64,000 bases of DNA, taken from contig ASKX01000003.1 of NCBI GenBank assembly GCA_000398025.1, positions 6,143 through 70,142 on the forward strand. Direction: 5' to 3'. How positions within the stretch are numbered: position 1 is the first letter of the stretch; each line of letters begins with the position of its first letter. The notes below the pieces were generated by a model, which saw only the letters and a list, made by a program, of their open reading frames with translations, was not told where the DNA came from and did no database searches. Position numbers and translations under genes: made by a program. Below, one piece after another: positions 10,364-54,423 of this stretch. This stretch comes from Candidatus Paceibacter normanii SCGC AAA255-P19. GTDB taxonomy: Bacteria; Patescibacteriota; Minisyncoccia; Minisyncoccales; Paceibacteraceae.

Positions 10364-11347
10364 ATGAAACTTAGAGAAATTCTGTCTCAGTTCAACATTT
10401 TTGCTCAGTGTAAAAAATACGGGCTTTCTCTTTGGCAGTGTCCCCAATTCCTCTTTTTCGTTATGGGGATAATAATTGTCGCCTCAACTCTCGCCGCTTA
10501 CCTTATTGGTAGCCGTTATGTTGAAGATCCCCAAATAGTTGCTTTAATGGTAATTGTCGTCACAGCCATTCTATTTATTATTGCCGTAATTATTACCCGT
10601 AGCTTTGAAAGATTAGCTGAGGCCAATCGCCTAAAATCAGAATTTGTCAGTGTGGTTTCTCATCAACTTCGCTCCCCCCTTTCTAATTTAAGGTGGGCGC
10701 TGGAGCTAATAATGTCAGGGAGATTAGGAAAAATCGAAGAAAAACAATTAGAATACTTTAAAATCCTCAAAGAAAACAGCAACCGAATGAGAGAGCTGGT
10801 TTCTGATTTATTAACCGTTTCCCGAATTGAAACCGCTAAGCTCCCCCTTGAAAAAGAAGAGTGTCAGCTGGAGGAAATAACCCAAAACATAATCAAGGAG
10901 TTTGAGCCTTTCGCTGAGGCTTCTAATGTTGAAATAATATTAAAACCTCAAAAAAAATTACCAAAAGTTTCAATTGATACCTCCCAGATTAAATTGGTAA
11001 TTGAAAACCTTTTGGATAACGCCATCCGTTATATTAAAGAAACCGGAAGAGTTGAAATAAAATTAGAAAAACAAGACAGAAGCTTATATTTTGAAATTAA
11101 AGACAGCGGCGTGGGAATTCCTAGGGGGGATCAAAGATATATATTTCAAAAATTCTTTCGTTCAGAAAACATTATGAGATATCAAACTCAAGGTTCGGGC
11201 CTCGGTCTCTACATTACCCGGGCCATTATCGAAAAATTAGGAGGTAAAATAGGCTTTAAGAGCCAAGAAGGCATTGGGTCGACCTTCTGGTTTACTCTAC
11301 CCATTAAAAAGCAAGATGAATTGAAAATTCATCGCAGCTCGAAATGA
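10364..11347 (+). CDS. Sensor histidine kinase (HisKA + HATPase_c)
   Basis: Two N-terminal TM segments. H-box VSHQLRSPLSNL. N/G boxes LLDNAIRY, DSGVGIP, GSGLGLYI. Confidence 0.85.
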   Translation: MKLREILSQFNIFAQCKKYGLSLWQCPQFLFFVMGIIIVASTLAAYLIGSRYVEDPQIVALMVIVVTAILFIIAVIITRSFERLAEANRLKSEFVSVVSHQLRSPLSNLRWALELIMSGRLGKIEEKQLEYFKILKENSNRMRELVSDLLTVSRIETAKLPLEKEECQLEEITQNIIKEFEPFAEASNVEIILKPQKKLPKVSIDTSQIKLVIENLLDNAIRYIKETGRVEIKLEKQDRSLYFEIKDSGVGIPRGDQRYIFQKFFRSENIMRYQTQGSGLGLYITRAIIEKLGGKIGFKSQEGIGSTFWFTLPIKKQDELKIHRSSK

Positions 11348-11365
11348 ATCTTTGATTCATTGAGC
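11337..11365. repeat. ATGAATC hairpin (GCTCGAAATGAATC-ttt-GATTCATTGAGC) spanning the kinase stop codon
   Basis: 12-bp stem with one mismatch. Near-identical stems recur at 37450..37477 and 22835..22864. It resembles hairpin 2 of the R1 repeats. Confidence 0.6.
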
Positions 11366-21631: not shown

Positions 21632-21703
21632 GGTGGTCGTAGCTTAATGGCAAAGCTCCTGACTGTGGCTCAGGTGATGGGAGTTCGATTCTCCTCGACC
21701 ACC
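21632..21703 (+). tRNA. tRNA-His(GUG) with encoded G-1
   Basis: G-1 plus acceptor GTGGTCG/CGACCAC and C73. Anticodon loop CTGTGGC. T-loop TTCGATT. Confidence 0.9.
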
Positions 21704-21753
21704 CAAGCTGTAAGCGAAGGGGAAAGAAGAGGTTTATCTCTTCGACCACCCAA
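21703..21753 (+). repeat. R1-like fragment plus a duplicated tRNA-His 3' end
   Basis: CCAAGCTgtaAGCGAAGGGGAAA, then hairpin GAAGAG-gtttat-CTCTTC, then CGACCACCCAA. The last segment repeats tRNA positions 21696..21706. Confidence 0.6.
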
Positions 21754-22810: not shown

Positions 22811-22834
22811 TTTAATAAATGAAAAATTTATTAA

Positions 22835-22864
22835 AAGGTGAAATGAATCGAAGATTCATTGACC
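22835..22864 (+). repeat. R1 half copy (linker plus hairpin 2)
   Basis: AAGGTGAA-ATGAATC-gaa-GATTCAT-TGACC. Confidence 0.5.
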
Positions 22865-22887
22865 ATACAATTAATTTTATCATAGAC

Positions 22888-22938
22888 GCAAGCCGCGTCA
22901 ATCGCGGTGAAGCGTGAAGATGAACAAAGTTCATCGCC
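22888..22938 (+). repeat. R1 double-hairpin repeat
   Basis: GCAAG-CCGCG-tcaat-CGCGG-TGAAGCGTGAA-GATGAAC-aaa-GTTCATC-GCC. Confidence 0.65.
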
Positions 22939-22989
22939 ATTTAACTTGTCAACAAGTGGAAAAATTGCTAAAATATTTCTATAATACTT

Positions 22990-23140: not shown

Positions 23141-23141
23141 C

Positions 23142-26670: not shown

Positions 26671-26676
26671 CAAAAA

Positions 26677-26727
26677 CCGAGCCCGCTTTGACGGGCGAAG
26701 GTGAAGAAGAAGAGAATCTTCTTCGAC
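26677..26727 (+). repeat. R1 double-hairpin repeat filling the tRNA-Cys/tRNA-Leu spacer
   Basis: CCGA-GCCCG-ctttga-CGGGC-GAAGGTGAA-GAAGAAG-agaat-CTTCTTC-GAC. Confidence 0.75.
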
Positions 26728-26728
26728 T

Positions 26729-28776: not shown

Positions 28777-28777
28777 G

Positions 28778-28851: not shown

Positions 28852-28927
28852 CTTGGGCGATGAAGTTTACCTCTTCGGGTTTGCCTTCATCTAGGACCCG
28901 GCGTCCCGCAAGTGCGGGACTTGGGTG
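28852..28927 (-). repeat. R1-related double hairpin filling the tRNA-Ile/tRNA-Val spacer
   Basis: Minus strand reads CACCCAAG-TCCCGC-actt-GCGGGA-CGCCGGGTCCTA-GATGAAGG-(18 nt)-CTTCATC-GCCCAAG. Confidence 0.6.
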
Positions 28928-29002: not shown

Positions 29003-30892
29003 TTAAACACTTTTTACTTTTACTTTTACTGATCCTTTAGTCTTTGGCAAGGGCTTTTCTTTTGTTGTTTTCTTACCTCCTTTGATCAACTCCTCAAACT
29101 CTTCCCTTTCGATTGTCTCTTTTTCAATTAATCTTTTGGCAATTTTTTCCAGCAAAACCTTTCTTTTCATTAAAATTTTCTTTGCTTTAGTTTCAGCATC
29201 TTTAATAAATTTAGCCACTTCTTTATCAATTTGAGTAGCTATCTTTTCAGAATAGTTTCTCTGTTCAGAAATCTCTTTTCCCAAAAAGATCATTTCTTCT
29301 TTTTCGCCAAAAGAAACTGGACCCAGGGATGACATGCCATATTCTTTAACTAATTTTCTGGCTAATTCTGAAGCTCTTTTAAGGTCGTTGGCTGCTCCCG
29401 TAGTAATTTCGCCAAACTTCAGCTTTTCTGCGCAATAACCGCCCAATAAAGTAGCCATTTCAGCCAAGAATTCTGATTTGGTTCTGATTTTTCTTTCTTC
29501 TTTGGGAAGTTTCAAAGTATAGCCGGCAGCTACCCCTCTAGCCATAATAGAAATTTTCCTTACTGGTTCTGTCTCCATTAAAGAGGTGGAAACCAAAGCA
29601 TGGCCAGCTTCATGGAAAGCCGCAATTTCTTTTTCTTTTTTAGATAAAACATGACTTTTTCTTTCTGGTCCCAATAAAACTTTTTCGATTGATTCCAATA
29701 ATTCTTCTTGGAAAATTTGCTTTTTATTTCTTCTGGCTGCCAAAATAGCAGCTTCATTTACTACGTTAGCTAAGTCCGCCCCGGAAAACCCTGGAGTTCT
29801 CTCGGCCACCTCTCTTAAATTAATATTGAGAGCCAAAGGTTTTCCTCGGCAGTGAATTTTTAAGATCTCTTGCCGGTCATTAATATCTGGTAAATCCAAG
29901 ACTACTCTTCTATCAAACCTGCCCGGCCTTAATAAAGCTGGGTCTAAAACATCGGGCCGATTGGTAGCTGATATCACTATCCGGGTGTCATCTCTCTCAA
30001 AACCATCCATTTCCACTAAAATTTGATTCAAAGTTTGCTCTCTTTCATCGTGTCCCCCGCCAATTCCTGCCCCTCTCAATCGACCGACAGCATCTAGTTC
30101 GTCAATAAAAATTACCGCCCTCCCTGCCTTTTTAGCGGTAGAAAAAAGGTCCCGGACTCTGCTGGCTCCCACCCCGACGAACATCTCGACGAATTCTGAA
30201 CCAGAAATAGAGAAAAAAGGTACCCCGGCCTCAGAGGCGACAGCGCGGGATAAAAGGGTCTTGCCAGTTCCGGGTGGTCCGACTAGCAAGACGCCGCGGG
30301 GAATTCTGGCTCCCATTTGAAGATATTTTTTAGGGTTTCTTAGGAAATCAACTACTTCTTCCAGTTCCTCTTTAGCTTCTTTGAGGCCAGCTACGTCTTT
30401 GAAAGTAATTTTTTCTTTGGGATGGCCTTCGGCCCCAAAAAGGCGAGCTTTAGCCCTGGTAAAGTCAAAGGCCTGAGTGGCTCCGGTTTTGGCTTGGCGG
30501 AAAATCATCCAGAAGAAAAAACCAAAAAATAAAAGCGGCAACAAGATTAACAGAACTGGACCCAGCCAAACCATTGCCCCTCCTTCTTTTTTTGTTTTAA
30601 TTTCTACTTCCTTTAGCTTTTCTTTATCTACTCCGTAATTTATCAAAGACTGGGAGAGAGCCAGCTCCGTTTCTTTGCGAGAGCGGGCTTTAGAATCATC
30701 TTGATAGATAATTTGGAGTTCGTCGCCGGTGACGGTAATCTTTTTAATCTTTCCTTGGTTAACTTCTTCTGCCAACTGAGTAATTGATAATTCCTTCCCT
30801 TTTTCAAAGGGCTGGGAAAATAAGGTAAAAAGCCCGGAGATGACCAGAAAAATCAACAAAATAAAAACAAAATTTTTAACTAAATTCTTCAT
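29003..30892 (-). CDS. ftsH: ATP-dependent zinc metalloprotease FtsH
   Basis: Two TM segments. Walker [11 protein letters not shown], Walker [31 protein letters not shown], zinc site HEAGHAL. Confidence 0.95.
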
Positions 30893-30917
30893 CTACCAAG
30901 ATTTTAATTTATTAAAA

Positions 30918-30951
30918 TCGCAGGTGGAAATGAAACTTTAGTTTCATTAAC
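30918..30951 (+). repeat. Decayed R1 half copy
   Basis: TCGCAGGTGGAAATGAAAC-ttta-GTTTCATTAAC. Compare GGTGGAGATGAAGCTTTAGCTTCATCGAC at 35229..35256. The differences are transitions that keep the stem. Confidence 0.55.
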
Positions 30952-30989
30952 TATTCTTAATTTTAACTAAAAATTTTCTAAAAATCAAG

Positions 30990-31040
30990 GCAAAAAAGTG
31001 AAAACCCCGGGGAGAGATGCTTTTGTGAGCAGATCTCTCC
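30990..31040 (-). terminator. Hairpin terminator of the 297-aa gene
   Basis: Minus strand reads GGAGAGAT-(14 nt)-ATCTCTCC followed by CGGGGTTTTCACTTTTTTG. Confidence 0.5.
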
Positions 31041-31074
31041 GCCAGGGTTCTCTGAGTAGTTGAGCGATTGCGGG

Positions 31075-33775: not shown

Positions 33776-35200
33776 TTAATATATCCGCCACAGATAACGC
33801 CAAGAGGGCGAAGAAACGACATCAGAAAACTTATTTAAAATTTCTTCCAGAGAGGGTTGATTTAAATTGGCTTTGGTATCAATGGGGAGGTTAGAGAATT
33901 TCTTTGGAAAACTTCCCGAGACTAAATTAAATAAATGGGAGAGGAAAGAAGTCGCATAACAACCTTTGGCCAAATTGAAATTTAGAATTACGCCTTGAGG
34001 GAAAACCTTAAAATTCAAAATTTCTACTTTTTCTATGGTTTTAATTCCCCGCTGCCGGTGTTTTAACAAATCCAAATCCTCTAAGTTCTTAAGAGCAAAA
34101 GAAACAGAAAAAATTCCACATTTTTTGAGGAGTTCTTCATAAAACAACCAATTTTTTCTTTCTATCCCCAATATTAAAGGTAACATCTCTGGCGGTTTTT
34201 CATTTTTGGCTAAATAAGAGGAAAGTTTTTTGTTGTAAAGAAAAGAGGCTACGGATTCAACTTGAAGCTCAAGCTGCTTTGAAATTCTTTTTAAAGCCCC
34301 AATGTAATCTTTAGGATTTTCTTTTAAATAAGAAACGATTTTTATCTCATTCTGGAAAGTCAAAGGAAAACACTCTAAAAGTGCTTCAATCTCTTCCCAT
34401 CTTCCCCAGAGTTGTTCCATTTCTTTTCTTAAGTTTTGGAAATAAAATAGCTCTCGCTGTCCCGGTTTAAAAAGATAGGTGAATAACGCTTTTTCATAAT
34501 CTCCCTGCAAAAGATAGAAGCCACAGTAATGGGTTATTAATCTTGGCACGCCAAATCTCTGCAAATAGATAAAATTATAGAAGCCATTTTTTTTGATTTC
34601 TTTCAGTTGTTCCAAGAATTTTTTCTGGTCAAAGTTCGGGCCGATTCTAATTAAAATCGTAAATTGATTCCCCCTCAGGGCGCCACGATAGGTTTCTTTC
34701 TCTCCGGAAAAAACATTTTTCACAAAAAAATTTGGCGAAGAAACCAAATTTAGTTTCTCAACGTCAGTTCCTTTAATAGAAACTCGCTGAGAAGTAATAG
34801 CATGCTTATCTTTAATCCCGGCATACTTGATGCTTTTTGGCTCCAAATTTAGCCTCTTGGTTAGCTCTTCTGCTACCTCAATGGTGGAGAGGCCGCATTT
34901 GACTAAAGTGGCGTAAATAACCGGGTCTTCTCGATTGAAATCTTTTTTGGTGCTCAAAAATTTTTCTGGAAAAACATTTTCTACCTCTCCTCCAAGACTA
35001 ATTTCTTCAACAATAAAGTCCTGAGGCCAAAGCTTTAAATAACCTAAGGGCAGCCCTTTCTTTTTAGGAATCGAAATGCCATATTTCTCTAAGGTTTTTT
35101 GGTCATCGATAAAAGTTTGGCTCTCAAAAAAACGAGGCCATCTTTTAATCGCCTCTCTAAAATTTTCACTTTCAATTTTTTTTGCTTCTAAAATATTCAT
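33776..35200 (-). CDS. truD: tRNA pseudouridine(13) synthase TruD
   Basis: LKLWPQDFIVEE N-terminal motif and catalytic AGIKDKHAITSQ. Confidence 0.8.
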   Translation of the reverse strand: MNILEAKKIESENFREAIKRWPRFFESQTFIDDQKTLEKYGISIPKKKGLPLGYLKLWPQDFIVEEISLGGEVENVFPEKFLSTKKDFNREDPVIYATLVKCGLSTIEVAEELTKRLNLEPKSIKYAGIKDKHAITSQRVSIKGTDVEKLNLVSSPNFFVKNVFSGEKETYRGALRGNQFTILIRIGPNFDQKKFLEQLKEIKKNGFYNFIYLQRFGVPRLITHYCGFYLLQGDYEKALFTYLFKPGQRELFYFQNLRKEMEQLWGRWEEIEALLECFPLTFQNEIKIVSYLKENPKDYIGALKRISKQLELQVESVASFLYNKKLSSYLAKNEKPPEMLPLILGIERKNWLFYEELLKKCGIFSVSFALKNLEDLDLLKHRQRGIKTIEKVEILNFKVFPQGVILNFNLAKGCYATSFLSHLFNLVSGSFPKKFSNLPIDTKANLNQPSLEEILNKFSDVVSSPSWRYLWRIY

Positions 35201-35202
35201 AG

Positions 35203-35256
35203 ACCGAGCCCGCCCAAGGCGGGCGAAGGTGGAGATGAAGCTTTAGCTTCATCGAC
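35203..35256 (+). repeat. R1 double-hairpin repeat (full copy) filling the truD-rpsA gap
   Basis: ACCGA-GCCCGC-ccaag-GCGGGC-GAAGGTGGA-GATGAAGC-ttta-GCTTCATC-GAC. Confidence 0.8.
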
Positions 35257-36333
35257 TTATTGTACTAGTTCGAGACTCATTCGGTGTTCTTTGGGTTCAA
35301 TGGAGAGAATTCGAAATTTATATTCTTTGCCAATCGCCAAGGCCTCTTCCATTTTCGATTTTGTCCCGAATTCAGAAATATGACAAAGCCCTTGGATTTT
35401 AGAACTAATTTTGATGAAAGCACCAAAAGGATTAAATTTGGTAGCTTTTCCTTTGACCTTGTCTCCTTTTTTGTATTCTTTTTCAATGTCTGACCAAGGA
35501 TCTTTTTTCAGGGCTTTCAAAGAAAGAGAAACTTTATCGCCAGAAATTTCAATAATTTTCGTTTGCACTTTATCTCCCATTTTGACAATTTCAGCCGGGT
35601 CCTCTACCAATTGCCAATCTAATTCTGAGATATGAATTAGTCCTTCTAGCCATTCTACTTCTTCTCCCAAAGAATTTTTTAAAGGGAAGCGGACAAAGGC
35701 GCCAAAATCAGTAACTCCGGTGATTTCTCCTTCAACCACATCTCCTACTTTGCACCCTTCTAAAAGTTTTTTTATTTTCTCGGTAGCTTTGGCTTTTTCT
35801 GATAAAATAAGCTTTTCTTCCTTAGGAGACAAATCAAAAATTTTAACATCTAACTCCTCGCCAATAAATTTTTGAAGCTCTTTTAAAATTTTAGCTTGAT
35901 CCCCTTTTTCCACTCGGGGATAGTGGGAACTTTCCAATTGGGAAACTGGCAAGAAGGCCGGAATGTCAAGAACTTCAGCCAGCAGCCCGCCCTTGTTGGC
36001 GCCGGAAATTTTTACTGTTATGGTTTCTCCACTTTCTTTCTTTTGGGCTAGCTTAGCCCAGGTTATTTCTTTGGAAGCTCCTTTAACTGACAGCTCGACA
36101 TAACCTTCTTCGTTCTCCAGGTCTACTACTTTGGCAAAAATAGTATCGCCGGCTTTAACGTTTTTCAGTTGGGTTTTGGCTTCAGCAAATTCTCTTCCGT
36201 AAATTATGCCCGCCCCCACCTGACCTAAATCCAAAAAAATGGAGGACTTACCCTTACCAATAACTTTTCCTTCAATAATTTCTCCCACCTTCAAAGGCTT
36301 TAACAAATTGTTTTTATCTAGCAATTCTTTCAT
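35257..36333 (-). CDS. rpsA: 30S ribosomal protein S1 (four S1 domains)
   Basis: Repeated G.V..V...G.F..L motifs: GEIIEGKVIG, GDTIFAKVV, GDVVEGEITGVTDFGAFV, GDKVKGKATKFNPFGAFI. Confidence 0.85.
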   Translation of the reverse strand: MKELLDKNNLLKPLKVGEIIEGKVIGKGKSSIFLDLGQVGAGIIYGREFAEAKTQLKNVKAGDTIFAKVVDLENEEGYVELSVKGASKEITWAKLAQKKESGETITVKISGANKGGLLAEVLDIPAFLPVSQLESSHYPRVEKGDQAKILKELQKFIGEELDVKIFDLSPKEEKLILSEKAKATEKIKKLLEGCKVGDVVEGEITGVTDFGAFVRFPLKNSLGEEVEWLEGLIHISELDWQLVEDPAEIVKMGDKVQTKIIEISGDKVSLSLKALKKDPWSDIEKEYKKGDKVKGKATKFNPFGAFIKISSKIQGLCHISEFGTKSKMEEALAIGKEYKFRILSIEPKEHRMSLELVQ

Positions 36334-36336
36334 ATA

Positions 36337-36389
36337 TCGAGCCCGCCTTAGCGGGCGAAGATGAAGATGAGAACGAAGTTCTCATCGCC
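36337..36389 (+). repeat. R1 double-hairpin repeat (full copy) upstream of rpsA
   Basis: TCGA-GCCCGC-ctta-GCGGGC-GAAGATGAA-GATGAGAAC-gaa-GTTCTCATC-GCC. Confidence 0.8.
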
Positions 36390-36412
36390 TCCCTTGCAGT
36401 TTATAATAATCC

Positions 36413-36450: not shown

Positions 36451-37152
36451 ATGCAGATTGTTTGGCATGGCCAATCCTATTTTCAAATCGAAGCTCGCCA
36501 TAATAAAAGCGAGCATACTTTAATTGTCATTGATCCTTTTTCTGAGGAAATTGGTCTGCGAGTCCCTAAACTTCAGGCCGATGTTTTATTAATTACCCAT
36601 CAGCATTATGACCATAACAATGTAAAAACGGTTTCAGGCACCCCCTTTTTAATTGATGGTCCCGGTGAGTACGAAATCAAAAAAGTTTTCATTCAAGGTA
36701 TTCCCGCCTGGCACGATCAAAAGCAGGGCAAAGAGCGAGGCTCCAACACCATTTATACCATTGAGGCCGAGGAGATGAAAATTTGTCACTTGGGAGATTT
36801 AGGCCAAAAAGAACTAACCGGAGAACAATTAGAGAAAATCGGCGATGTAGATATTTTAATGATTCCAGTCGGGGGCGTCTATACCATTTCAGCTAAAGAA
36901 GCCTTAGAAATAATGTCTCAACTTGAACCCAGAATAACCATCCCCATGCACTACCAACTTCCCAAATTGAAGATAAAATTAGACACCCGAGCGATAGCGA
37001 AGGGTGGAAAAGAAGATTTATCTTCTTTGAACGGCGTAGATAAATTTTTAAAGAGTTTAGGCATTAAATCAATGGAGCCCCTAAGCAAGCTTTCAATAAA
37101 AAGCAAAGATATTTCTCCAGAAGAGGCTAAAATAATTCTTTTAAGACCGTAA
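36451..37152 (+). CDS. MBL-fold metal-dependent hydrolase (UPF0173-like) carrying an in-frame R1 insert
   Basis: LITHQHYDHN motif, ICHLGDLG, and IPMHY. Confidence 0.75.
   Translation: MQIVWHGQSYFQIEARHNKSEHTLIVIDPFSEEIGLRVPKLQADVLLITHQHYDHNNVKTVSGTPFLIDGPGEYEIKKVFIQGIPAWHDQKQGKERGSNTIYTIEAEEMKICHLGDLGQKELTGEQLEKIGDVDILMIPVGGVYTISAKEALEIMSQLEPRITIPMHYQLPKLKIKLDTRAIAKGGKEDLSSLNGVDKFLKSLGIKSMEPLSKLSIKSKDISPEEAKIILLRP
36985..37029 (+). repeat. R1 45-nt unit in frame inside the hydrolase gene
   Basis: ACCCGAGCGATAGCGAAGGGTGGAAAAGAAGATTTATCTTCTTTG translates as TRAIAKGGKEDLSSL. Confidence 0.75.
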
Positions 37153-37449: not shown

Positions 37450-37500
37450 GCTCAATGAATCTTTGATTCATTTCGATCTTCAATAAATTTTCAATTTATC
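37450..37500. repeat. ATGAATC hairpin plus CAATTTY units upstream of gyrA
   Basis: GCTCAATGAATC-ttt-GATTCATTTCGA followed by CTTCAATAAATTTTCAATTTATC. Confidence 0.6.
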
Positions 37501-37503
37501 TCG

Positions 37504-39978
37504 ATGCCTAAAGAAAATCAAAAAATAAATAGAGAAACTGAAATAGGCTATATTAAACCCCGAGCCATTACCGAGGAAATGAAGGACTCGTACATTGACT
37601 ACGCTATGTCAGTGATTGTTTCTCGAGCTCTGCCTGATGTCAGAGATGGTTTAAAACCAGTCCATCGCCGGATTTTATACACGATGGGCGAGATGGGATT
37701 GGGGCACACAGCGAAATTTAGAAAGTCAGCAACAGTGGTGGGCGAAACAATGGGGAAACTGCATCCACATGGTGATGCAGCAATTTACGATGCCTTGGCT
37801 CGAATGGCTCAAGATTTCTCTTTAAGATATCCTTTAATTCAGGGTCAAGGCAATTTCGGTAGCATCGACGGAGATCCCCCGAGTGCGATGAGGTATAGCG
37901 AGGCGAAGCTTTCAGAAATCGGTGAGGAAACGCTCAAAGACATTGAGAAAAACACGGTTGATTTCGCTGACAATTACGACGGAACCCGTAAAGAGCCCAC
38001 TGTTTTACCTTCACCCCTTCCTCAATTGTTGCTTAATGGTTCTTTAGGAATTGCCGTAGGTATGGCTACCAATATTCCCACCCATAACCTTTCAGAAGTT
38101 TGCGAAGCCACCGACTATTTAATTGACCATCCCAAAGCCGATACTGAAGATCTCTTTCAGTTTGTCAAAGGACCCGATTTTCCTACTGGCGGCCAAATTT
38201 TTAATCAAAAAGAAATTATCGCTGCTTATTCTCAGGGTAAAGGACCAATTTTAACTCGAGGGAAAACGGAAGTTATAGAAAGGGAAAAGAGCGGCCGACT
38301 TCAGATTGTTATTACTGAAATTCCTTTCCAAGTTCAAAAGTCTTCTTTAGTTGAGCAATTTGCTCATTTAGTTCAAGAAAAAAAGATAGAAGGGATTAAA
38401 GATATTAGAGACGAATCTGACAAAGAAGGACTGAGAATTGTCATCGAGCTACAAAAAGATGCTTTTCCTCAGAAGATTTTAAACCGTCTTTATAAGTTTA
38501 CCGACCTCCAAAAAAGTTTTCATTTGAATATGTTAGCTTTGGTGGAAGGGATTCAGCCTCGAGTTTTAAACTTAGCCGATTTATTGAACTACTTTATTGT
38601 TCACCGTAAAGAAGTAGTTACCCGGAGAACAGAATATGAATTAGAAAAAGCCAAAGGAAGAGCTCATATTTTAGAAGGTCTACATAAATGCCTAGCTGAT
38701 ATAGATGCTGTAATAAAAACCATCAAAAACTCAGCCAATCGAGAGGAAGCCCAAAAGAATTTGATGAAGCGCTTTCGCTTAACTCAAATTCAAGCTAACG
38801 CCATTTTAGAAACCAAACTTTCAGCCCTGGCTAAGCTGGAAAGAAAGAAGATTGAAGACGAATTAAAAGAGCAGCGTTCCAGAATCAAAGAATTAACAGC
38901 CATTTTGAAGAGCCCTCAAAAAATCAAACAAGTTATTAAAAAAGAATTAAAAGAGCTAAAAGAAAGATTTGGTGACGAAAGAAGAACTAAAGTAGTTGTT
39001 CAAAAAGTTGGTGAGATAGCCGAAGAAGACCTAATTCCCTCCGAGGAAACAATCATTACTCTTACTCAAGGAGGTTACATTAAAAGAATTAACCCTTCTA
39101 TTTATCGTCTCCAAAAAAGAGGAGGCAAAGGAATTGCCGGCATGAAAACAGTGGGCGACGATGTGGTTGAGCATTTCTTGACCGCCAACACTCACGACAA
39201 CCTTTTATTCTTTACTGATTCAGGGAAAGTTTTTCGCACCCTAGTCTATGAAATTCCCGAAGGCGTCAGGGTGGCTAAAGGCCGGGGGTTGTTGAACTTT
39301 TTAGAAATTTCTCCTGAGGATAAAGTTCTGTGTATTTTGGCTTTGGGTAAGGAAGATGAAGTCTTGGGCACAAAATATTTAGTCATGGTCACCAAAAATG
39401 GTATAACCAAGAAAACTAGCTTGGAAGAGTTCGAGAATGTTCGCCGTTCAGGTTTAATAGCCATTAATCTAAGAAAAGGCGATGCCTTAAGAAAAGTAAG
39501 AAAGAGCGCTGACGAGGACGATATAATTTTAGCAACCAAGAAGGGCCAATCCATCCGCTTTAAAGAAAAAGAAATAAGGCCAATGGGTAGGCCAGCAGCT
39601 GGAATTAAAGGAATTAGATTAAAGAAAGGGGATGAGGTGATTGGCATGGATCCAATTCAAGCTAAAGACAAAAAGGAAAAACAGTATTTATTGGTCGTTA
39701 CAGAAAATGGCTATGGCAAAAGGACGGATTTGACAGAGTATCGACCCCAAGGAAAGGGAGGCTCAGGAATAAAAACAGCCCAGGTAACTCCCAAAACCGG
39801 CAACCTAATTACCTCTCGAGTTTTAACTGACGAGGAAGATTTAATTGTTATTTCTCAAAGAGGCCAAGTGATTAGAACAAAAATTTCTTCCATTCCCAAG
39901 TTGAGCCGGGCCACCCAAGGAGTAAGAATAATGGTCTTGGGAGAAGGAGATAAAGTGGCTTCCACTACCTGCCTATAA
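37504..39978 (+). CDS. gyrA: DNA gyrase subunit A
   Basis: [12 protein letters not shown], active-site region AMRYSEAKL, and C-terminal beta-pinwheel repeats. Confidence 0.95.
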
Positions 39979-41735: not shown

Positions 41736-42425
41736 TTATATTTTTACCTTAATTCTTCGCCTCTTTTCTCTTAAAATCTTGGGTATTCTAATGGTTAGAA
41801 TGCCTTCTTTCATCGTGGCTTCAGCTCGGTCGGGATCCACTTCTACTGGCAAGATTATTTCTCGAGAAAAGGAACCCCAATAACATTCTTGAGCAAAATA
41901 GTCACCTTCTTCTTCATAGGGTCTTTCTCGGCTGCCTTTGATAGTGATGATATCTTTTTCCAAAGCAATATCTAAATCTTCTGGCTTGACTCCGGCAATG
42001 GCTGATTGAACAACCAAATCAGTATCAGTTTGATAAACATCAATAGCTAATTCTCCTTCTGTCTCAAACCATTTTTCTTTAGTTTCCGCAGCTTTAGTAA
42101 AAGAGGGCTCCTCTTTAATTTCTTCTTTCGGCTCAGGTTCAAGTTCCGGTTCTGGCTCTGTTAAGTCTTCTTTTTGGGTAATTATTACCTTCTCCTCTTT
42201 TGGTTTTGTCAAAGAGGATAAATCCTCTTTTCCACCCTTCGCTGACACTCGGGTAAGCGATGAACTTCGTTCATCTTCACCCTTCACTGACGCTCGGGTA
42301 ACCGAAGTCTTCTGGCGAGAGATAGTTCCCCGCCTTCTTTTTGGTTTTTCTTCTCTTGCTTCTTCTACTTCTCCTTCTTCAATCCCCATTCCCTTTTTTA
42401 ATTTTTCAAAAAAAGAATCAGCCAT
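41736..42425 (-). CDS. Hsp20/alpha-crystallin family protein with extended N-terminal region containing two R1 units
   Basis: C-terminal ACD: LAIDVYQTDTDLVVQSAIAGVKPEDLDI...GILTIRIPK. The N-terminal ~130 aa are low-complexity. Confidence 0.8.
   Translation of the reverse strand: MADSFFEKLKKGMGIEEGEVEEAREEKPKRRRGTISRQKTSVTRASVKGEDERSSSLTRVSAKGGKEDLSSLTKPKEEKVIITQKEDLTEPEPELEPEPKEEIKEEPSFTKAAETKEKWFETEGELAIDVYQTDTDLVVQSAIAGVKPEDLDIALEKDIITIKGSRERPYEEEGDYFAQECYWGSFSREIILPVEVDPDRAEATMKEGILTIRIPKILREKRRRIKVKI
42210..42299 (-). repeat. Two tandem 45-nt R1 units in frame inside hsp20
   Basis: On the minus strand, unit 1 (42299..42255) translates as TRASVKGEDERSSSL. Unit 2 (42254..42210) translates as TRVSAKGGKEDLSSL. 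Confidence 0.8.
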
Positions 42426-42429: not shown

Positions 42430-43137
42430 TTATATTTTACACACCCCTTTAATTTTTTTTAACCTTTTAAATCCTAAAGAAACAAAAATAGCTAAGCCGA
42501 TTAAGATAATTGCCGGAATAAGCGCTTTTAAAAAACCCTCCATTTCCATTATAGAAAAATTGTAGAGGCCGTGCAAGAAAATACTTATCCCCAGACCCAA
42601 GCTGAGCAGTCGTAATCTTTTTTTTGTTTCAAAAAAAGATAAAGCCAGAAAATAACCTACTGTTGCTGAACACAAAACATGTAAAAAAGTCGCCCCTAAA
42701 AACCGGAAAGCGCTGATTGAGAGAACTCGACCAGCTAAAAAAGTTGGGCCCAAAGGAAGTAAAATTAGAATATTTTCCAAAGCAGCAAAACCCAGGGCAG
42801 CAATTATCATATAGAGCATGGCGTCTAATGGTTCATCAAACTCCGGACTCTTCAAGACTTTTTCTCTGACCACCAGATATTTCAAAAATTCCTCAACTAA
42901 AGCTACCCCAACAAAGGTGTTCAAGATAACAATCAAGGCAGGAGCAAGAGTTAGTTTCTCAATTTCTTGGAAAATTCCTACCTCTATAAAAACCGTTGGA
43001 ATGGCTATTAATAAACCGCAAAAGAATATTTTTAAAATCATTTGATTCGATTCTGGATGAGCATCCTTTCTTAAGTAAAACAAAAGCCAGATTATACTGG
43101 GAGCCAAACCAAAAAATATATAGAGAGGATACGTCAT
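42430..43137 (-). CDS. PrsW-family intramembrane protease
   Basis: Polytopic membrane protein with ALVEEFLKY (EE motif), GFAALEN and a HGLYN motif. Confidence 0.75.
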   Translation of the reverse strand: MTYPLYIFFGLAPSIIWLLFYLRKDAHPESNQMILKIFFCGLLIAIPTVFIEVGIFQEIEKLTLAPALIVILNTFVGVALVEEFLKYLVVREKVLKSPEFDEPLDAMLYMIIAALGFAALENILILLPLGPTFLAGRVLSISAFRFLGATFLHVLCSATVGYFLALSFFETKKRLRLLSLGLGISIFLHGLYNFSIMEMEGFLKALIPAIILIGLAIFVSLGFKRLKKIKGVCKI

Positions 43138-43156
43138 TAACCAAGTTTTTATTTAT

Positions 43157-43183
43157 GAGTTCGATGAGATAAATCTCATCGAC
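43157..43183 (+). repeat. R1 half copy spanning the valS stop codon
   Basis: GAGTTC-GATGAGAT-aa-ATCTCATC-GAC. Confidence 0.5.
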
Positions 43184-45254
43184 TACCGGGCCACTCTTCT
43201 ATTATTAAATATCTTTTATCTTTTATTGGAAGTTTTTGGTATATCTCTTCAGTGATGAAGGGGATAAACGGGTGTAGAAGTTTTAGAGAGGTTAGTAATA
43301 CATATAATAATACTTTTTGACTTTCAACTTTTGAACTTTGAACTTTGAACTTTTCTATGTAGATATCACAAAAATCATGCCAGAAAAAACTATAAAGCTG
43401 CCTAGCTGCCGCCCCAAACCTAAAACTCCCCAAATCCTTATTCACCGACTTAATTATTTTGTCTAACGCCTTCAGTATTTTTTTATCCGCCAAAGTTAAA
43501 TTTTTAGATTTGGAAATTGCCTGCCCCGTAGGAAGCCGAAGGCTTTCCTTCGGGGGAAATTGCATTAGCACAAACCGGCTGGCATTCCATACTTTATTAC
43601 AGAACTTCCTTCCCATCACAATGTTATCTTCCACAAATCGGATATCTTGCCCTCCCATTATTTGCCAGGCGATACCAAAACGAGTGGCATCAGCTCCATA
43701 TTTTTCACAAAGCACTAAAGGATCTATACCGGTTCCCAAAGATTTAGACATTCTTTTTCCTTCTCGGGTTAAAACTGTGGCGTGAATATAGACATCTTGA
43801 AAAGGAGCTTTTTTCATAAATTCTATTCCTGAAAATATCATTCTAGCCACCCATAAGTTTATAATTCCCCGGTCAGTAGAAAGCACATTGGTCGGATAAA
43901 ACGTTTTTAAATCTTTAGTTTTTTTAGGCCAGCCCAAAGTGGCAAAGGGCCAGAGAGCAGAAGAAAACCAAGTATCCAAAACATCATCTGCCCCTTTTAT
44001 TGGGATTTTATGGCCCCACCAGATTTGCCGGGAAATACACCAATCTCTAACGTTCTTTAACCAATTAAAATAAACTTTCTCCCAACGTTTAGGATGAAAC
44101 TTCACCTTTCCTGATTTTACTGCTTCAATCGCCGTTTTAGCTAATTGGTCCATTTTTAAGAACCGCTGTTCAGAAGGAATTAACTCCAAAGTGGTGCCAC
44201 AACGATAACATTTGGGCACTTGATGCGAATAGTCTTTGACTTTTTCTAAAAGTCCAAGTTTTTTTAAATCTTCAACTACTTTTTGCCGAGCTTCCAGCGC
44301 TTTCATTCCCTGATAAGGAAGAGGGGCAGCTTTGGTAATTTTCCCTTGCTCGTCGATCACCTGAACCTGCGGCAAATTATGCCTTTGAGAGATTTCATAA
44401 TCTGTTAAATCGTGAGCCGGAGTGATTTTTACTGCTCCCGTTCCAAATTCTGGATCAACTAATCTATCAGCAATAATAGGAATAACTCTATTAGCTAGAG
44501 GCAAAGTTACCTTTTCCCCAACCAATTTTTTATATCTTTTATCTTTAGGATTAACTGCTACAGCCGTATCTCCCAACATTGTTTCTGGCCTAGTCGTTGC
44601 GACGATAATAAAATTATCGTCGTCTTTTTTTATGGGATATTTTAGATACCAAAGTTTCCCTTTTTCTTCTTTATATTCTATCTCAAGGTCAGATAGTGAT
44701 GTTTGGCATCTTGGGCACCAATTAACCACCCTTTTTCCTTTATATATCCAGCCTTTTTTCTGATAATGCTGGAAGCAGGTTTGGACTGCTCTAACATATT
44801 CTTTATCCATAGTGAACCTGGTTCGCGACCAGTCACAAGAGCAACCCAACTTTTTGAATTGTTCTAAGATAATGTTGCCGTATTTCTCTTTCCATTGCCA
44901 AACTCTTTCAATAAATTGATCTTGGCCCAAATCAAACCTATTCTTCCCCTCCTTTTTTAATTCCCTTTCCACTACGTTTTGAGTGGCGATACCAGCATGG
45001 TCAGTGCCTGGCAACCATAAAGCCTTATATCCTTGAGTTCTCTTCCAGCGAATTAAAATATCTTGGCAGACAACATTTAAAGCGTGGCCCATGTGCAGGG
45101 AGCCAGTAATATTGGGCGGAGGAATCAAAATTGTGTAGGGCTTTTTCCTTTTGCCAGGTAGTTTATCTGGATTAAAAAAACTACCCTTTTCCCAAAGATT
45201 ATAAATTTTCCCCTCAACCTTTTTGGGCTCATAGATTTTTGGCAGTTTCGCCAT
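43176..45254 (-). CDS. valS: Valine--tRNA ligase (short, 692 aa)
   Basis: PPPNITGSLHMGHAL (HIGH), KMSKSLG (KMSKS), and an editing-domain TTRPETMLGD motif. Confidence 0.9.
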   Translation of the reverse strand: MAKLPKIYEPKKVEGKIYNLWEKGSFFNPDKLPGKRKKPYTILIPPPNITGSLHMGHALNVVCQDILIRWKRTQGYKALWLPGTDHAGIATQNVVERELKKEGKNRFDLGQDQFIERVWQWKEKYGNIILEQFKKLGCSCDWSRTRFTMDKEYVRAVQTCFQHYQKKGWIYKGKRVVNWCPRCQTSLSDLEIEYKEEKGKLWYLKYPIKKDDDNFIIVATTRPETMLGDTAVAVNPKDKRYKKLVGEKVTLPLANRVIPIIADRLVDPEFGTGAVKITPAHDLTDYEISQRHNLPQVQVIDEQGKITKAAPLPYQGMKALEARQKVVEDLKKLGLLEKVKDYSHQVPKCYRCGTTLELIPSEQRFLKMDQLAKTAIEAVKSGKVKFHPKRWEKVYFNWLKNVRDWCISRQIWWGHKIPIKGADDVLDTWFSSALWPFATLGWPKKTKDLKTFYPTNVLSTDRGIINLWVARMIFSGIEFMKKAPFQDVYIHATVLTREGKRMSKSLGTGIDPLVLCEKYGADATRFGIAWQIMGGQDIRFVEDNIVMGRKFCNKVWNASRFVLMQFPPKESLRLPTGQAISKSKNLTLADKKILKALDKIIKSVNKDLGSFRFGAAARQLYSFFWHDFCDIYIEKFKVQSSKVESQKVLLYVLLTSLKLLHPFIPFITEEIYQKLPIKDKRYLIIEEWPGSR
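43318..43355. repeat. ACTTTGA heptamer run inside valS
   Basis: TTGACTTTCA-ACTTTTGA-ACTTTGA-ACTTTGA-ACTTTTC, encoding KFKVQSSKVESQKV near the C-terminus. Confidence 0.6.
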
Positions 45255-45438: not shown

Positions 45439-45439
45439 C

Positions 45440-49375: not shown

Positions 49376-50101
49376 TTATCCGCGAGCTACTGCTAAACCA
49401 ATAATTTCTTTGGAGCCGGCTTTTTTAAGGACTCGGGCGCACTCGGTCATGGTAGCGCCGCTGGTATAAACGTCGTTAATTAAAAGAATCTTTTTTCCTC
49501 TTACTGTCTCCGGGTTTTGGCAGAGAAACGCCCCTTTAATGTTCTCTTCCCTTTCCTTATCTGAAAGCTCTACCTGAGGTAGAGTATTTTTTATTTTTAC
49601 CAAAACATTATTCAACAGGGGGATTCCCCAAAATTGGGCTAAATTGTCACCAATCTCTTCTGCCTGGTTAAACCCTCGCCACCTTAATCTCTTTTTTCCC
49701 AGAGGCACAGGAACTAAAAAGAAATCAGTAAAGCTTGGCGGCTTCTCGATCAATTGAAAGTGTTCTATTATTAAAGAAGCTAAAGGTTCAGCTAGTTCCT
49801 TAATAAAGGGTTCGTATTTAAACTTTTGGATGAGTTTTCTAGTTAAAGGCTTTTGATAGTCGGCAGCAAAATATAAATCAGCCAGTTCAGCCGTGGAATA
49901 TGGTCGAAGAGGATAAATCCTCTTCTCCTCCCTTCGCTGTCGCTCGGGATTTTGATGAAAACCGGAAATCTCCAAGCATCCTTGGCAATCGTCGCAAAGA
50001 TAGCTACCTTCTTTTTGACAGCCAAGGCATTGTTTCGGAAAAAAGAGATCAAAAAGATAATTTTTAATTCCTTTCCCCATCGAAATAAATTGAAAATTCA
50101 T
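49376..50101 (-). CDS. comF: ComF-family phosphoribosyltransferase-like competence protein with in-frame R1 insert
   Basis: N-terminal zinc ribbon CLGC...CDDC. C-terminal PRT motif ILLINDVYTSGATM. Alternative start at M8 (50080). Confidence 0.8.
   Translation of the reverse strand: MNFQFISMGKGIKNYLFDLFFPKQCLGCQKEGSYLCDDCQGCLEISGFHQNPERQRREEKRIYPLRPYSTAELADLYFAADYQKPLTRKLIQKFKYEPFIKELAEPLASLIIEHFQLIEKPPSFTDFFLVPVPLGKKRLRWRGFNQAEEIGDNLAQFWGIPLLNNVLVKIKNTLPQVELSDKEREENIKGAFLCQNPETVRGKKILLINDVYTSGATMTECARVLKKAGSKEIIGLAVARG
49903..49950 (-). repeat. R1 unit inside comF, read in a different frame
   Basis: Minus strand reads ATCCCGAGCGACAGCGAAGGGAGGAGAAGAGGATTTATCCTCTTCGACC. It translates as PERQRREEKRIYPLRP. 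Confidence 0.75.
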
Positions 50102-50135
50102 TGAAGATTGAAATGAATTGAAAATTCATTGAATA
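50083..50135. repeat. R2-type AT-rich repeat/hairpin cluster in the comF/pilM2 divergent region
   Basis: The 14-mer TTGAAAATTCATTG occurs twice here and once at 24647..24660. Overlapping palindromes AATTCATT/AATGAATT. Confidence 0.65.
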
Positions 50136-52632: not shown

Positions 52633-54350
52633 GCTTAATTCAACAACTAGTCAAAAAAGGAGTTTTAGAAAAAGAGAAAGCCACCTCTTTAGAATTTGAG
52701 ATCAAAGAGAGTGGCAAGAAAGAAGAAGAAGTGATTTTGGAAAAGGGAATTACCAGCGAAGAGTCTTTGTTTAATCTAAAAAGTGAAAACTTAAAAATAC
52801 CCCTGAAAGAGGTAGCCGCTCAAGACATTTCTTTAGAAACTTTAGAGTTGATCCCTGAAGAAACCGCCAAGCATTATCAAATGATCCCCCTAAAGAAAAA
52901 AGAAAATCTTTTAGAGGTAGGAATGATTTATCCTGAAGATCTCAAAACCCAGGAAGCTCTGAAATTCTTAGCTCGCCGCGAGAGGTTTAGTTTCCGAGTT
53001 TTTCTAATTACCCCTACCACTTTTAACAACCTCTTAAAACAATACCGTACCTTAAGAAGAGAAGTTGGCCAGGCCTTAGAAGAGCTGGAGACCGAATTGA
53101 AGACTGAAAAGATTCGGCTTCCCAGAACAGCCGCTGAGTTTGAAAGGCTGGCTGAAGAAGCTCCGATCACCAAAATTGTGGCTGTAGTTTTAAGGCACGC
53201 CGTTGAAAGTAAGGCCTCGGATATCCATATTGAGCCCACTCGGAAGAAGTTAAGAGTACGTTTTAGATTATTAGGATTTCTTCATTCTTCCATCCTTTTG
53301 CCTTTAAGGATTCACCCCGCCGTAGTGGCTAGAGTTAAAATCCTTTCCAATTTAAAGATTGACGAAACTAGAATTCCCCAAGACGGGAGGTTTTCTACTA
53401 AAATAGATAATAAAGACATTGATTTTCGAGTCTCTACTTTCCCTACTACCTTAGGAGAGAAGGCAGCAATTAGAGTTTTAGATCCTTCGATGGGAATGAA
53501 AGAATTTGGAGAATTGGGGTTGGAAGGTAGAAATTATGAGACAACCAACCGAGCCACTAAAAAACCTTACGGCCTTATCTTGACCTGCGGGCCAACTGGC
53601 TGTGGCAAAACCACCACTCTTTATGCTTTCTTGACTCGCTTAAACAAAGAAGAAAAAAACATTGTTACCTTAGAAGATCCGGTGGAGTATTTTATTGAGG
53701 GAGTAAATCAATCCCAAATTAGGCCGGAAATCGGCTACGACTTCCCGATTGGCTTGCGGCACGTTCTTCGTCAAGACCCCGACATTATTATGGTGGGTGA
53801 AATCCGAGACGAAGAAACGGCTTCCTTAGTTATCCATGCAGCCTTAACCGGCCACTTAGTTTTGTCCACCCTTCATACCTCCAATGCTTTAGGAGCTATT
53901 CCCCGACTGATTGATTTGGGAATTCAACCTTATTTGATTTCTCCCACTTTGAATTGTATTGTTTCCCAAAGGTTGGTTAGAAGACTGTGTGATGATTGTA
54001 AAAAGAAGGTTAGGCCTAAAAAAGAGATTAAGGATTTAATCCTTAAAGAGGTAGAAAATCTTCCTCCCCAAGTTAAAAAAACAGTTAAAGTCCCCAAACC
54101 TTTAATGATTTGGGAGGCCCAGGGCTGTAAAAAATGTAACAATGAAGGTTTCAGCGGTCGGGTTGCTCTTTTCGAAGTTTTAGAAATGTCTGATAACTTA
54201 GAAGATATAATTTTAGAAATGCCTACTGTAGAAAAAATCGCTGGAGAGGCGAAGCTGCAAGGTATGGTTAATATGAAACAGGACGGCATCCTCAAGGTTT
54301 TAAGCGGAACAACGACTATTGAGGAAATTTTAAGAACAACCGAAGAATGA
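52629..54350 (+). CDS. pilB: Type IV pilus assembly ATPase PilB/GspE family (second copy)
   Basis: Walker A GPTGCGKTTT, LRQDPDIIMVGEIRD, and tetracysteine CDDC...CKKC. Confidence 0.9.
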   Translation: MSLIQQLVKKGVLEKEKATSLEFEIKESGKKEEEVILEKGITSEESLFNLKSENLKIPLKEVAAQDISLETLELIPEETAKHYQMIPLKKKENLLEVGMIYPEDLKTQEALKFLARRERFSFRVFLITPTTFNNLLKQYRTLRREVGQALEELETELKTEKIRLPRTAAEFERLAEEAPITKIVAVVLRHAVESKASDIHIEPTRKKLRVRFRLLGFLHSSILLPLRIHPAVVARVKILSNLKIDETRIPQDGRFSTKIDNKDIDFRVSTFPTTLGEKAAIRVLDPSMGMKEFGELGLEGRNYETTNRATKKPYGLILTCGPTGCGKTTTLYAFLTRLNKEEKNIVTLEDPVEYFIEGVNQSQIRPEIGYDFPIGLRHVLRQDPDIIMVGEIRDEETASLVIHAALTGHLVLSTLHTSNALGAIPRLIDLGIQPYLISPTLNCIVSQRLVRRLCDDCKKKVRPKKEIKDLILKEVENLPPQVKKTVKVPKPLMIWEAQGCKKCNNEGFSGRVALFEVLEMSDNLEDIILEMPTVEKIAGEAKLQGMVNMKQDGILKVLSGTTTIEEILRTTEE

Positions 54351-54402
54351 TGAGAACCTTGTCCTCATCATTACCTTCGCTTTTATAAATAAAAGCTCGG
54401 TG
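54340..54402 (-). repeat. R1 repeat (AT-rich hairpin 1 variant) between pilB2 and the receiver gene
   Basis: Minus strand reads CACCGAGCT-tttatttataaa-AGCGAAGGTAAT-GATGAG-gacaaggtt-CTCATC-ATTCTTCGG. Confidence 0.65.
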
Positions 54403-54423
54403 AATAATAAAAATATGGTGAAG

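Follow-up and report, generated by a model that had tools for sequence, protein, structure and literature searches.

The 64-kb window described here, a stretch of 64,000 nucleotides from contig ASKX01000003.1 of Candidatus Paceibacter normanii, is compact, has a G+C content of ~40%, and carries 20 tRNA genes and two type IV pilus clusters. Its proteins match those of the Parcubacteria/Patescibacteria, the nearest named relative being Parcubacteria CG1_02_39_15, with the Nealsonbacteria also near. Between the rpsA and truD genes lies one copy of a dispersed, structured repeat, hereafter referred to as R1, that recurs along the window at operon junctions, in tRNA spacers, and within open reading frames (ORFs). 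The evidence presented below suggests that R1 is probably a very small mobile element.

The R1 unit is 45-60 nt long and is built, in order, from (N)ACC-GA, hairpin 1, GAA-GGT, a purine linker, hairpin 2 (GAWGARRAC..), and a G(A/C)C tail. A preliminary description of the window had recognized the two hairpins, both of which are retained here, and had overlooked a third helix. Indeed, folding of the copies reveals an outer helix, P1a (ACC/GGT), in which the 3-6 nt lying 5' of CGAGC pair with the bases 3' of GCGAA. A conserved, asymmetric GA/GAA internal loop separates P1a from hairpin 1. In the long type of R1, hairpin 1 contains 5-10 bp, whereas in the short type it has shrunk to GC-NNNA-GC; AT-rich versions retain both hairpins. 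A single-stranded core of 12-14 nt is conserved. The CGAG directly 5' of hairpin 1 is nearly invariant and differs from the GTAG-type motif of the repetitive extragenic palindromic (REP) sequences. The non-palindromic parts of the unit, namely CGAG, GCGAAGGTGRAGA, and the G(A/C)C tail, are kept across unrelated sites and genomes. Hairpin 1, on the other hand, tends to be specific to a lineage: CCCGC(C) in the window, GCTTCC in L007 and L008, GCCACC in L023 and L029, and GCTTTCGC in L131, L149, and L157, where the L-numbers designate fetched contigs or loci of relatives. There are no terminal inverted repeats, the two ends (ACCGAGC.. and ..TCGAC/TCGCC) having at most CGA in common. A kink-turn reading of the GA/GAA loop fails against the Kt-7 consensus, for position 2b is G rather than A.

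The structure of R1, and not its sequence, is conserved. Every copy folds far better than its own shuffles (z-scores of -3.7 to -6.9). The core motif GCGAAGRTGRAGATGA, with three or fewer mismatches allowed, occurs 8 times in the window as compared to 1.3 times expected from shuffles, and a scan combining a regular expression with a hairpin requirement yielded 10-11 copies with the full plan versus 0.9 in Markov shuffles. In an alignment of 33 copies, drawn from the window and from relatives, the cells are paired in 93% of cases, as opposed to 79% in shuffles and 35-49% when the partners are slid, and two-sided changes are found in 100 cells versus 30. The corresponding values for 85 distinct model matches from metagenome contigs are 96% versus 78% paired and 265 versus 72 cells with two-sided changes, with compensatory pairs present in each of the three helices. 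P1a itself covaries between copies (ACC/GGT, TATC/GATG, ACGC/GCGT, TCCC/GGGA, and CACCC/GGGTG). The similarity between copies thus persists against shuffled controls, as does the preliminary claim that the stems change in a compensatory manner, although self-correction of palindromes may contribute to the apparent compensation. The numbers of G.U and A.C pairs do not favor either RNA strand. In hairpin 1 the count is 13 G.U to 5 A.C, but 7 of the 13 fall at a position where the scan itself permitted wobble, and the count speaks for neither strand.

A covariance model built from the 33 copies was run unfiltered on the window with a cut-off of E < 1e-3; the E-values given below are rough, the calibration of the model having been shortened. 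Thirteen matches fall below the cut-off and two are weaker, 42259-42302(-) and 43136-43184. When the AT-rich copy at 22814-22872 and the divergent one at 28852-28927 are counted as well, there are ~17 copies, which make up ~1.4% of the window at a density of about one per 4 kb. Both orientations occur. The copies, with their coordinates in the window, are as follows.

11306..11365, + strand: AT-rich copy between a histidine-kinase gene and a response-regulator gene (R1 score 19.3 bits, E = 7e-4).
21698..21753, + strand: copy E, short type, immediately 3' of tRNA-His (27.9 bits, model match 21698-21747), flanked by the 10-nt direct repeat GACCACCCAA.
22814..22872, + strand: AT-rich copy read from the sequence, the reference for repeat family D4, matched only partially by the model (9.6 bits); hairpin 1 AATAAAT/ATTTATT, linker AAAAGGTGAA, hairpin 2 ATGAATC/GATTCAT, tail TGACC; adjoins the htrA-like start codon and stands in tandem with copy D.
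22882..22939, + strand: copy D, long type, in the htrA/tRNA-Arg spacer (36.3 bits), with the compensated outer helix ACGC/GCGT.
26672..26728, + strand: copy C, long type, filling the whole tRNA-Cys/tRNA-Leu gap in the sense orientation to both (60.6 bits).
28852..28927, - strand: divergent relative in the tRNA-Ile/tRNA-Val gap, consisting of CCAAG, hairpin TCCCGC/GCGGGA, a long hairpin GATGAAG..CTTCATC, and GCC; plan recognized by eye and by folding, membership tentative (9 bits, E = 0.7).
30891..30952, + strand: full copy with the AT-rich hairpin 1 GATTTTAA/TTAAAATC, its P1 end 4 nt from the ftsH start codon (37.9 bits).
35199..35257, + strand: copy A, long type, taking up all of the intergenic space from the rpsA stop (35257) to the truD start (35200), antisense to both genes; GC-rich hairpin 1 GCCCGCC/GGCGGGC, hairpin 2 GATGAAGC/GCTTCATC (65.2 bits, E = 3e-17; fold -32.2 kcal/mol, z = -6.9).
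36332..36390, + strand: copy B, long type, in the spacer between the divergent genes for a metallo-beta-lactamase (MBL) hydrolase and rpsA, its P1 end 4 nt from the rpsA start codon (71.5 bits).
36981..37032, + strand: short-type copy within the ORF of the MBL-fold hydrolase (36451-37152), in frame and in the sense orientation, encoding TRAIAKGGKEDLSSLN (28.9 bits).
37450..37509, - strand: AT-rich copy extending over all of the space from the stop codon of a 95-aa ORF to the gyrA start, with the ATG abutted by the CGAG end (27.3 bits).
42207..42258, - strand: copy G, short type, in the Hsp20 ORF (41736-42425), sense and in frame, the ORF being continuous (31.4 bits).
42259..42302, - strand: copy F, short type, in the Hsp20 ORF in tandem with copy G; also repeat D9 (15.6 bits, E = 0.009).
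43136..43184, + strand: weak or decayed copy at the prsW-leuS junction, with hairpin 2 GATGAGA/TCTCATC and the CGAC tail kept (13.9 bits, E = 0.027).
49902..49952, - strand: copy H, short type, sense within the ComF ORF, encoding PERQRREEKRIYPLRP (35.3 bits).
50075..50134, + strand: AT-rich copy whose CGAA end abuts the ComF start codon (21.4 bits, E = 2e-4).
54345..54405, - strand: copy J, with the AT-rich hairpin 1 GCTTTTA/TAAAAGC, at the junction of pilB with the gene for a CheY-like response regulator, in antisense orientation to the two genes (50 bits).

The preliminary description fares well against this list in its main points. The four copies regarded there as full (A-D) all follow the two-hairpin plan, copy A does occupy the whole truD-rpsA gap, and the estimate of at least a dozen copies in 64 kb, in both orientations, is borne out. 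Several of its classifications need to be changed. The presumed half copy at 21703..21753 is a complete one of the short type (copy E), while 43157..43183 is indeed part of the weak or decayed copy at 43136-43184. The stretches 30918..30951, 37450..37477, and 11337..11365 are neither half copies nor merely related hairpins, being parts of full copies with an AT-rich hairpin 1. One of the two related copies, 54340..54402, corresponds to copy J at a score of 50 bits; the other, 28852..28927, fits by eye only. Missing from the earlier list were the copies within ORFs at 36981-37032, 42207-42302, and 49902-49952, along with that at 50075-50134.

Some copies form part of the genes themselves. The pilB stop codon is provided by copy J, and five of the about 17 copies lie in frame within ORFs, the genes listed being those for the MBL hydrolase (one copy), Hsp20 (two in tandem), and ComF (one). 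The ComF copy is read in a frame other than that of the Hsp20 copies. In the Hsp20 protein, the Hsp20 domain (aa 131-227) lies downstream of copies F and G. The ORFs for the MBL hydrolase, Hsp20, and ComF continue across the copies, and their orthologues are without the 15-16 residues that each unit contributes. As judged from the reading frames, the copies within ORFs are read through at the level of the predicted proteins. In keeping with this, units within genes measure 45 or 48 nt and those between genes 52-56 nt, which fits translation through the copies and not excision from the RNA.

Comparison with relatives allows filled and empty sites to be set side by side. The syntenic relatives employed are contigs whose S1 protein is 76-77% identical to that of the window and which share the exact gene order of the window from 33.7 to 41 kb. 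The sites compare as follows.

rpsA stop/truD start: 1 nt (L201) or 4 nt (L204) in relatives; 56 nt in the window.
95-aa ORF/gyrA junction: 2 nt in relatives (TAA-AT-ATG in L201); 58 nt in the window, 56 of them extra.
MBL hydrolase/rpsA spacer: 62 nt in L201, where a terminal GCTCGGT is all that is left of the element; 117 nt in the window.
MBL hydrolase: 219 aa in three relatives; 233 aa in the window, with a 48-nt insertion after ..TTAGAC.
ComF: modal length of 218 aa in homologues, which are without the 16 residues; 234 aa in the window.

The existence of filled and empty orthologous sites demonstrates that the R1 copies are insertions. The gyrA of the closest named relative (922-4974 in both L201 and L202) encodes 1350 aa and contains an intein (PF14890), whereas the window gyrA (37504-39978) encodes 824 aa and has none.

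The same places have been struck more than once. In the window, the 48-nt insertion in comF follows directly upon CATCAAAA. Into comF of L207, a 48-nt unit has been inserted in the sense orientation and in another frame. Two 45-nt units are present in L209, and L208 possesses four of 48 nt, all of them antisense and 12 nt further downstream. The starting points of the three sense insertions in comF differ by 3-4 nt. Likewise, L205 has its own, partly decayed copy at rpsA/truD, and L203 has a different copy in the spacer upstream of ftsH, in the opposite orientation. At the junction of pilB with the response-regulator gene, the spacing is -3 to 20 nt in most relatives; in L003 an orthologous copy is present in decayed form, and L032 carries one of the short type. 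The R1 elements have thus landed repeatedly and independently in the few places that tolerate them, namely operon junctions of 1-20 nt, tRNA spacers, and permissive protein loops. Copies decay, and they build both tandem arrays and inverted mosaics that share a common hairpin 2; the mosaics are seen in L131, L149, L091, L020, and L156, and the window contains tandem pairs only.

The pilB/response-regulator junction was also considered as an ancestral functional site. Since the junction is bare in most relatives and filled with unrelated palindromes in others, it is a permissive site rather than the seat of a conserved element. In L011, L037, and L070, a different palindromic repeat with ACGAATT/AATTCGT units is located where the window has copy J, and L048 and L050 have yet other hairpin-rich inserts, such that the junction appears to be a general landing site for lineage-specific palindromes. 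The two type IV pilus clusters of the window (11.7-21.2 kb and 50.1-61.1 kb) are paralogous, with pilB, pilC, pilM, pilN/O, and pilin genes in each and stretches of pilB that are 70-75% identical in DNA sequence. Each pilB adjoins a small CheY-like receiver gene, and an R1 copy is positioned just upstream of each receiver gene.

Two further observations were made on comF. In the ComF homologues P0006 and P0046, a second, unrelated insertion (..NPPTTHTPPP..) with duplicated LIPVPLD flanks is found at alignment columns of about 215-245, and it may represent a different small element with a target duplication. In L208, a small HNH endonuclease gene (2200-2586) lies directly downstream of the ComF gene with the four tandem R1 units.

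The ORF calls behind the orientation and context statistics are crude. On this basis, 48 of 134 model matches lie within ORFs, a few of them spuriously, with 24 in the sense and 24 in the antisense orientation. Operon junctions that are filled exactly show a different picture: 12 of the copies are antisense and none is sense. The sequence preceding the element is biased too. Of 90 copies away from start codons, 89 have a pyrimidine at position -8, and T at -9 and A at -6 are also favored. CAT occupies precisely -7..-5, at a fixed distance of 4 nt from the element, in 21 of the 111 unique copies, and in the window this trinucleotide is the start codon of truD, rpsA, and ftsH. For gyrA and comF, the CGAG or CGAA end abuts the start codon with no spacer at all. 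Both the fixed spacing and the antisense orientation at gene starts would be explained by a preference for a TTCAT-like target in fixed orientation, given that this is the reverse complement of ATGAA, the commonest start. The notion that hairpin 2 is a copy of the target was rejected, for its 3' arm and the 5' flank do not as a rule agree.

Almost no GGAGG was found within 40 nt upstream of about 60 window genes, the leaders being A/T-rich or absent. Mimicry of a Shine-Dalgarno sequence is accordingly not a general property of R1: many hairpin 2 stems are without GAGG/CCTC, and the genome has no such sequence to mimic. A separate feature of gene starts in this clade concerns the tRNAs. In 1.2 Mb of clade DNA, an ATG opening an ORF of at least 60 aa follows at distance 0 after 23 of 225 tRNAs, with 1-4 cases at each of the other distances up to 30 nt. 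Examples in the window are tRNA-Ala/gpsA (23067-23144), tRNA-Val/RluA-like gene (28774-28851(-)), tRNA-Glu/ORF (45367-45442), and tRNA-Arg/recG (49058-49133(-)), and the arrangement is also observed in L003, L005, L007, L023, L027, and others. It resembles the tRNA punctuation of mitochondria and would give leaderless mRNAs.

R1 is not confined to the window. As the preliminary description had anticipated for a true dispersed family, further copies are present in related Parcubacteria. Among 80 related ComF neighborhoods (1.09 Mb), 41 model matches were obtained, all concentrated in 12 loci, with 68 of the 80 having none; L008 alone carries 14 copies in 15.5 kb. Two strong copies are present in L029. 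A pattern scan of metagenome contigs matched 120 stretches, about 40 of which are low-GC contigs, similar to those of the Candidate Phyla Radiation (CPR), with genuine copies; the high-GC matches were dismissed as chance or coding matches. In 45 low-GC loci, 37 from the metagenome scan and 8 reached via protein neighbors, the covariance model gave 90 matches in 295 kb, most of them where the bare pattern had not matched. The family is thus patchy and lineage-specific among related Parcubacteria. A phage origin was considered as well, but of 107 viral contigs that fit the bare pattern none has the full plan. With Rfam 15, only tRNAs reach the gathering score in the window, and nothing credible is reported over copies A and B even at E <= 10. 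The open-access literature on CPR bacteria, searched for REP sequences, for miniature inverted-repeat transposable elements or MITEs, and for palindromic repeats, yielded no description of such elements.

Of the known families of small repeats, R1 works most like REP sequences and the bacterial interspersed mosaic elements (BIMEs) built from them, and also like the Rickettsia palindromic elements (RPEs), while belonging to neither family. With the REP/BIME sequences of Enterobacteria and Pseudomonas it shares tiny imperfect palindromes in high copy number, a location at operon junctions, inverted pairs or mosaics, stems that differ between lineages yet remain paired, and the lack of both terminal inverted repeats and a regular target duplication. 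The REP tetranucleotide, GTAG, may have a counterpart in the CGAG at the 5' foot of the R1 stem. The differences are equally clear. In R1, two hairpins, an outer helix, and a GA/GAA loop are combined into a fixed unit. Roughly one copy in three falls within an ORF, so that the element is not extragenic. Its host is a Parcubacterium, and no REP-associated tyrosine transposase (RAYT) was found by Pfam in the window or by a weak tblastn search of related DNA. Mycobacterial interspersed repetitive units (MIRUs) are 46-100 bp long, overlap the stop and start codons of neighboring genes at operon junctions, and are often in tandem. R1 is similar to these in occupying junctions exactly, in providing the pilB stop, and in forming arrays of 2-4 units; MIRUs, however, are defined by tandem arrays of variable number and not by covarying hairpins, and an in-frame scatter through housekeeping genes is not known for them.

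Elements derived from the IS200/IS605 insertion sequences (IS), the palindrome-associated transposable elements (PATEs), resemble R1 in having a hairpin near each end, neither terminal inverted repeats nor a regular target duplication, a short motif in the 5' flank to which the orientation may be fixed, although the three sense insertions in comF start 3-4 nt apart, and a 5' edge that pairs with internal sequence, as in P1a. The pairing of guide and cleavage site in IS608 is a parallel to P1a. PATEs, though, are typically at least 100 nt long and share their ends with an identifiable IS, and neither an IS of this kind nor a TnpA turned up in the window or among the fetched loci; moreover, the filled and empty sites place most of P1a inside the insertion and not in its flank. 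Correia elements and classical MITEs are likewise small, non-autonomous, and of high copy number, and may lie between co-transcribed genes. R1 is under half their size and has neither terminal inverted repeats nor a duplication of fixed length (TA for Correia), and membership in this group was rejected on these two defining features. RPEs are palindromic repeats that sit in frame in unrelated housekeeping genes, where they are read through, and that are also found between genes and near RNA genes (PMC10969869). R1 resembles them in its in-frame, read-through insertions, its reduced host genome, and the absence of a known transposase. RPEs differ in being about 100-150 bp long with a conserved peptide specific to each family, whereas R1 is 45-60 nt and gives differing peptides, being read in either orientation and in two or more frames; the sequences show no similarity, and the hosts belong to unrelated phyla. 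The preliminary comparison with REP, Correia, and RPE sequences therefore stands for the first and last of these and not for Correia. Because five window copies are in-frame insertions in genes, the RPE comparison is in fact stronger than was realized at that time.

Taken together, the data make it probable that the R1 copies constitute a family of mobile elements of Parcubacteria that are very small, non-autonomous, modular, and palindromic, and of the REP/BIME-RPE kind. In such a scheme, an enzyme acting in trans would have to recognize the folded single-stranded DNA, and the hairpins would be retained for this reason. The enzyme would insert R1 in a fixed orientation beside the TTCAT-like motif, and any effects on mRNA stability or translation would probably be side effects. 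The leading candidate, proposed tentatively and with doubt, would be an HUH/Y1 transposase, related to RAYT or to the enzymes of IS200/IS605, whose gene lies outside the window.

Several observations weigh against mobility. Pfam revealed no transposase or integrase in about 60 window ORFs, in agreement with the preliminary description. A tblastn search of 1.9 Mb of related DNA with IS200, IS608, and RAYT probes, a weak test, gave nothing below E = 0.18; this DNA consists of fragments of many genomes, and a single-copy mobilizing gene would be easily missed. When 203 ORFs from 30 contigs with R1 copies were compared all-against-all by BLAST, no transposase-like family recurred, the sole recurrent neighbor being the CheY-like receiver. 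Some of the "empty" sites carry terminal footprints of the element (GTCG in L204 and GCTCGGT in L201), which suggests that at least some insertions are old and that the copy was later deleted. The comparisons of filled and empty sites are between lineages, with no polymorphism within a species, and thus do not show recent mobility. The direct repeats found at the junctions vary in length, about 0-3 nt for ComF and MBL, 4-5 nt for gyrA, rpsA, and truD, and 9-10 nt for an extended truD repeat and tRNA-His, and do not point to any one chemistry of insertion. Finally, a function at the RNA level could instead be indicated by the conserved GA/GAA loop and by the copies that abut start codons exactly.

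That function would make R1 mainly a structured RNA, either a processing or "punctuation" signal or a hairpin stabilizing the 5' or 3' ends of mRNAs, with its reverse complement at gene starts, in the role that tRNA 3' ends seem to play for other genes of this genome. The conserved loop, covariation in all helices, the single fixed spacing to start codons in 21 of 111 copies, the ratio of 12 antisense to 0 sense at exactly filled junctions, window genes essentially without Shine-Dalgarno sequences, the 23 of 225 clade tRNAs followed immediately by ATG, and the presence of RNase Y and RNase J genes in the window can all be cited in its favor. Nevertheless, an RNA signal is unlikely to be the main explanation. 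Copies lie in the sense orientation in tRNA operons and, inside ORFs, equally in both orientations and in several frames; the same junctions are bare in close relatives; the conserved motifs decay in L205 and L003; counts of G.U and A.C pairs do not favor either strand; and Rfam gives no match. A preference for TTCAT would account for spacing and orientation without any function, and the flank bias extends to copies away from start codons. In a further reading, structured RNAs would punctuate gene starts in these Parcubacteria without Shine-Dalgarno sequences, tRNA 3' ends doing so for many genes and R1 for others. Read antisense, R1 would place the base of a long helix 1-2 nt before the ATG of truD, rpsA, ftsH, gyrA, and comF, and it would have been co-opted as a mobile, tRNA-independent processing signal, a transposable "start-site cassette". 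This reading is also given little weight, and slightly less; if it were true, leaderless or near-leaderless mRNAs would be released and neighboring cistrons uncoupled.

A signal at the level of DNA maintained by the host, either an uptake sequence connected with the type IV pilus and ComF or a binding site of the nucleoid or topoisomerase type, would agree with the wealth of pilus and competence genes in the window, a density of about one copy per 4 kb, both orientations, copies within genes, and the conserved 12-14-nt single-stranded core. The BIMEs of Escherichia coli bind gyrase and the integration host factor, which would provide a precedent. Uptake sequences, on the other hand, arise by point substitution and not by insertions of 45-56 nt, and R1 copies are insertions relative to the orthologues. 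Copies are absent from most of the related genomes that have these pilus genes, and a simple binding site does not need two covarying hairpins. Such a signal is highly improbable. Still harder to credit is a local origin of the hairpins by template switching or slippage (quasi-palindrome formation), with the family likeness due to base composition and no movement. Hairpin 2 often opens with ATGAA like the adjacent start codon, several copies have short flanking direct repeats, tandem arrays and mosaics are common, and self-correction of palindromes could yield "compensatory" changes without selection. The conservation of the non-palindromic linkers across unrelated sites and genomes largely refutes this proposal. 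Whole 48-nt units are present in comF and in the MBL hydrolase gene without a local template, and the covariance model recovered 90 further copies in independent contigs.

Additional features of the window were noted. The tRNA-Ile at 28927-28999(-), adjacent to the divergent copy, has the anticodon UAU, seldom seen among bacteria. In a locally GC-richer stretch (0.47), a conserved ORF of 270-310 aa without a Pfam match lies in the RNase J/ftsH interval (31075-31968(-) in the window, 10260-11198 in L201, and 5984-6802 in L203), and a strong hairpin near 31005-31050 is kept in L203. An ORF at 2014-3723 contains collagen-like triple-helix repeats (PF01391) with a 9-nt period, and 13 overlapping repeat copies are found at 2489-3039.

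CPR bacteria have tiny, streamlined genomes that are usually described as poor in mobile DNA. R1 shows one such compact genome carrying a repeat family that fills gene junctions, provides a stop codon, and adds loops of 15-16 residues to ComF, Hsp20, and an MBL hydrolase. The R1 model can be used to flag extensions and insertions derived from the element in predicted Parcubacteria proteins and gene boundaries, and the copies are potential markers for resolving strains. The link to start codons, along with the tRNA/ATG arrangement, makes translation initiation without Shine-Dalgarno sequences testable. The mobilizing enzyme, if found, would be a compact system that recognizes hairpins and selects its target. 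If R1 is indeed mobile as proposed here, 45 nt would represent a lower bound for a unit that still proliferates, and selfish palindromes of the REP/RPE kind would have arisen or spread in a third, very distant lineage.

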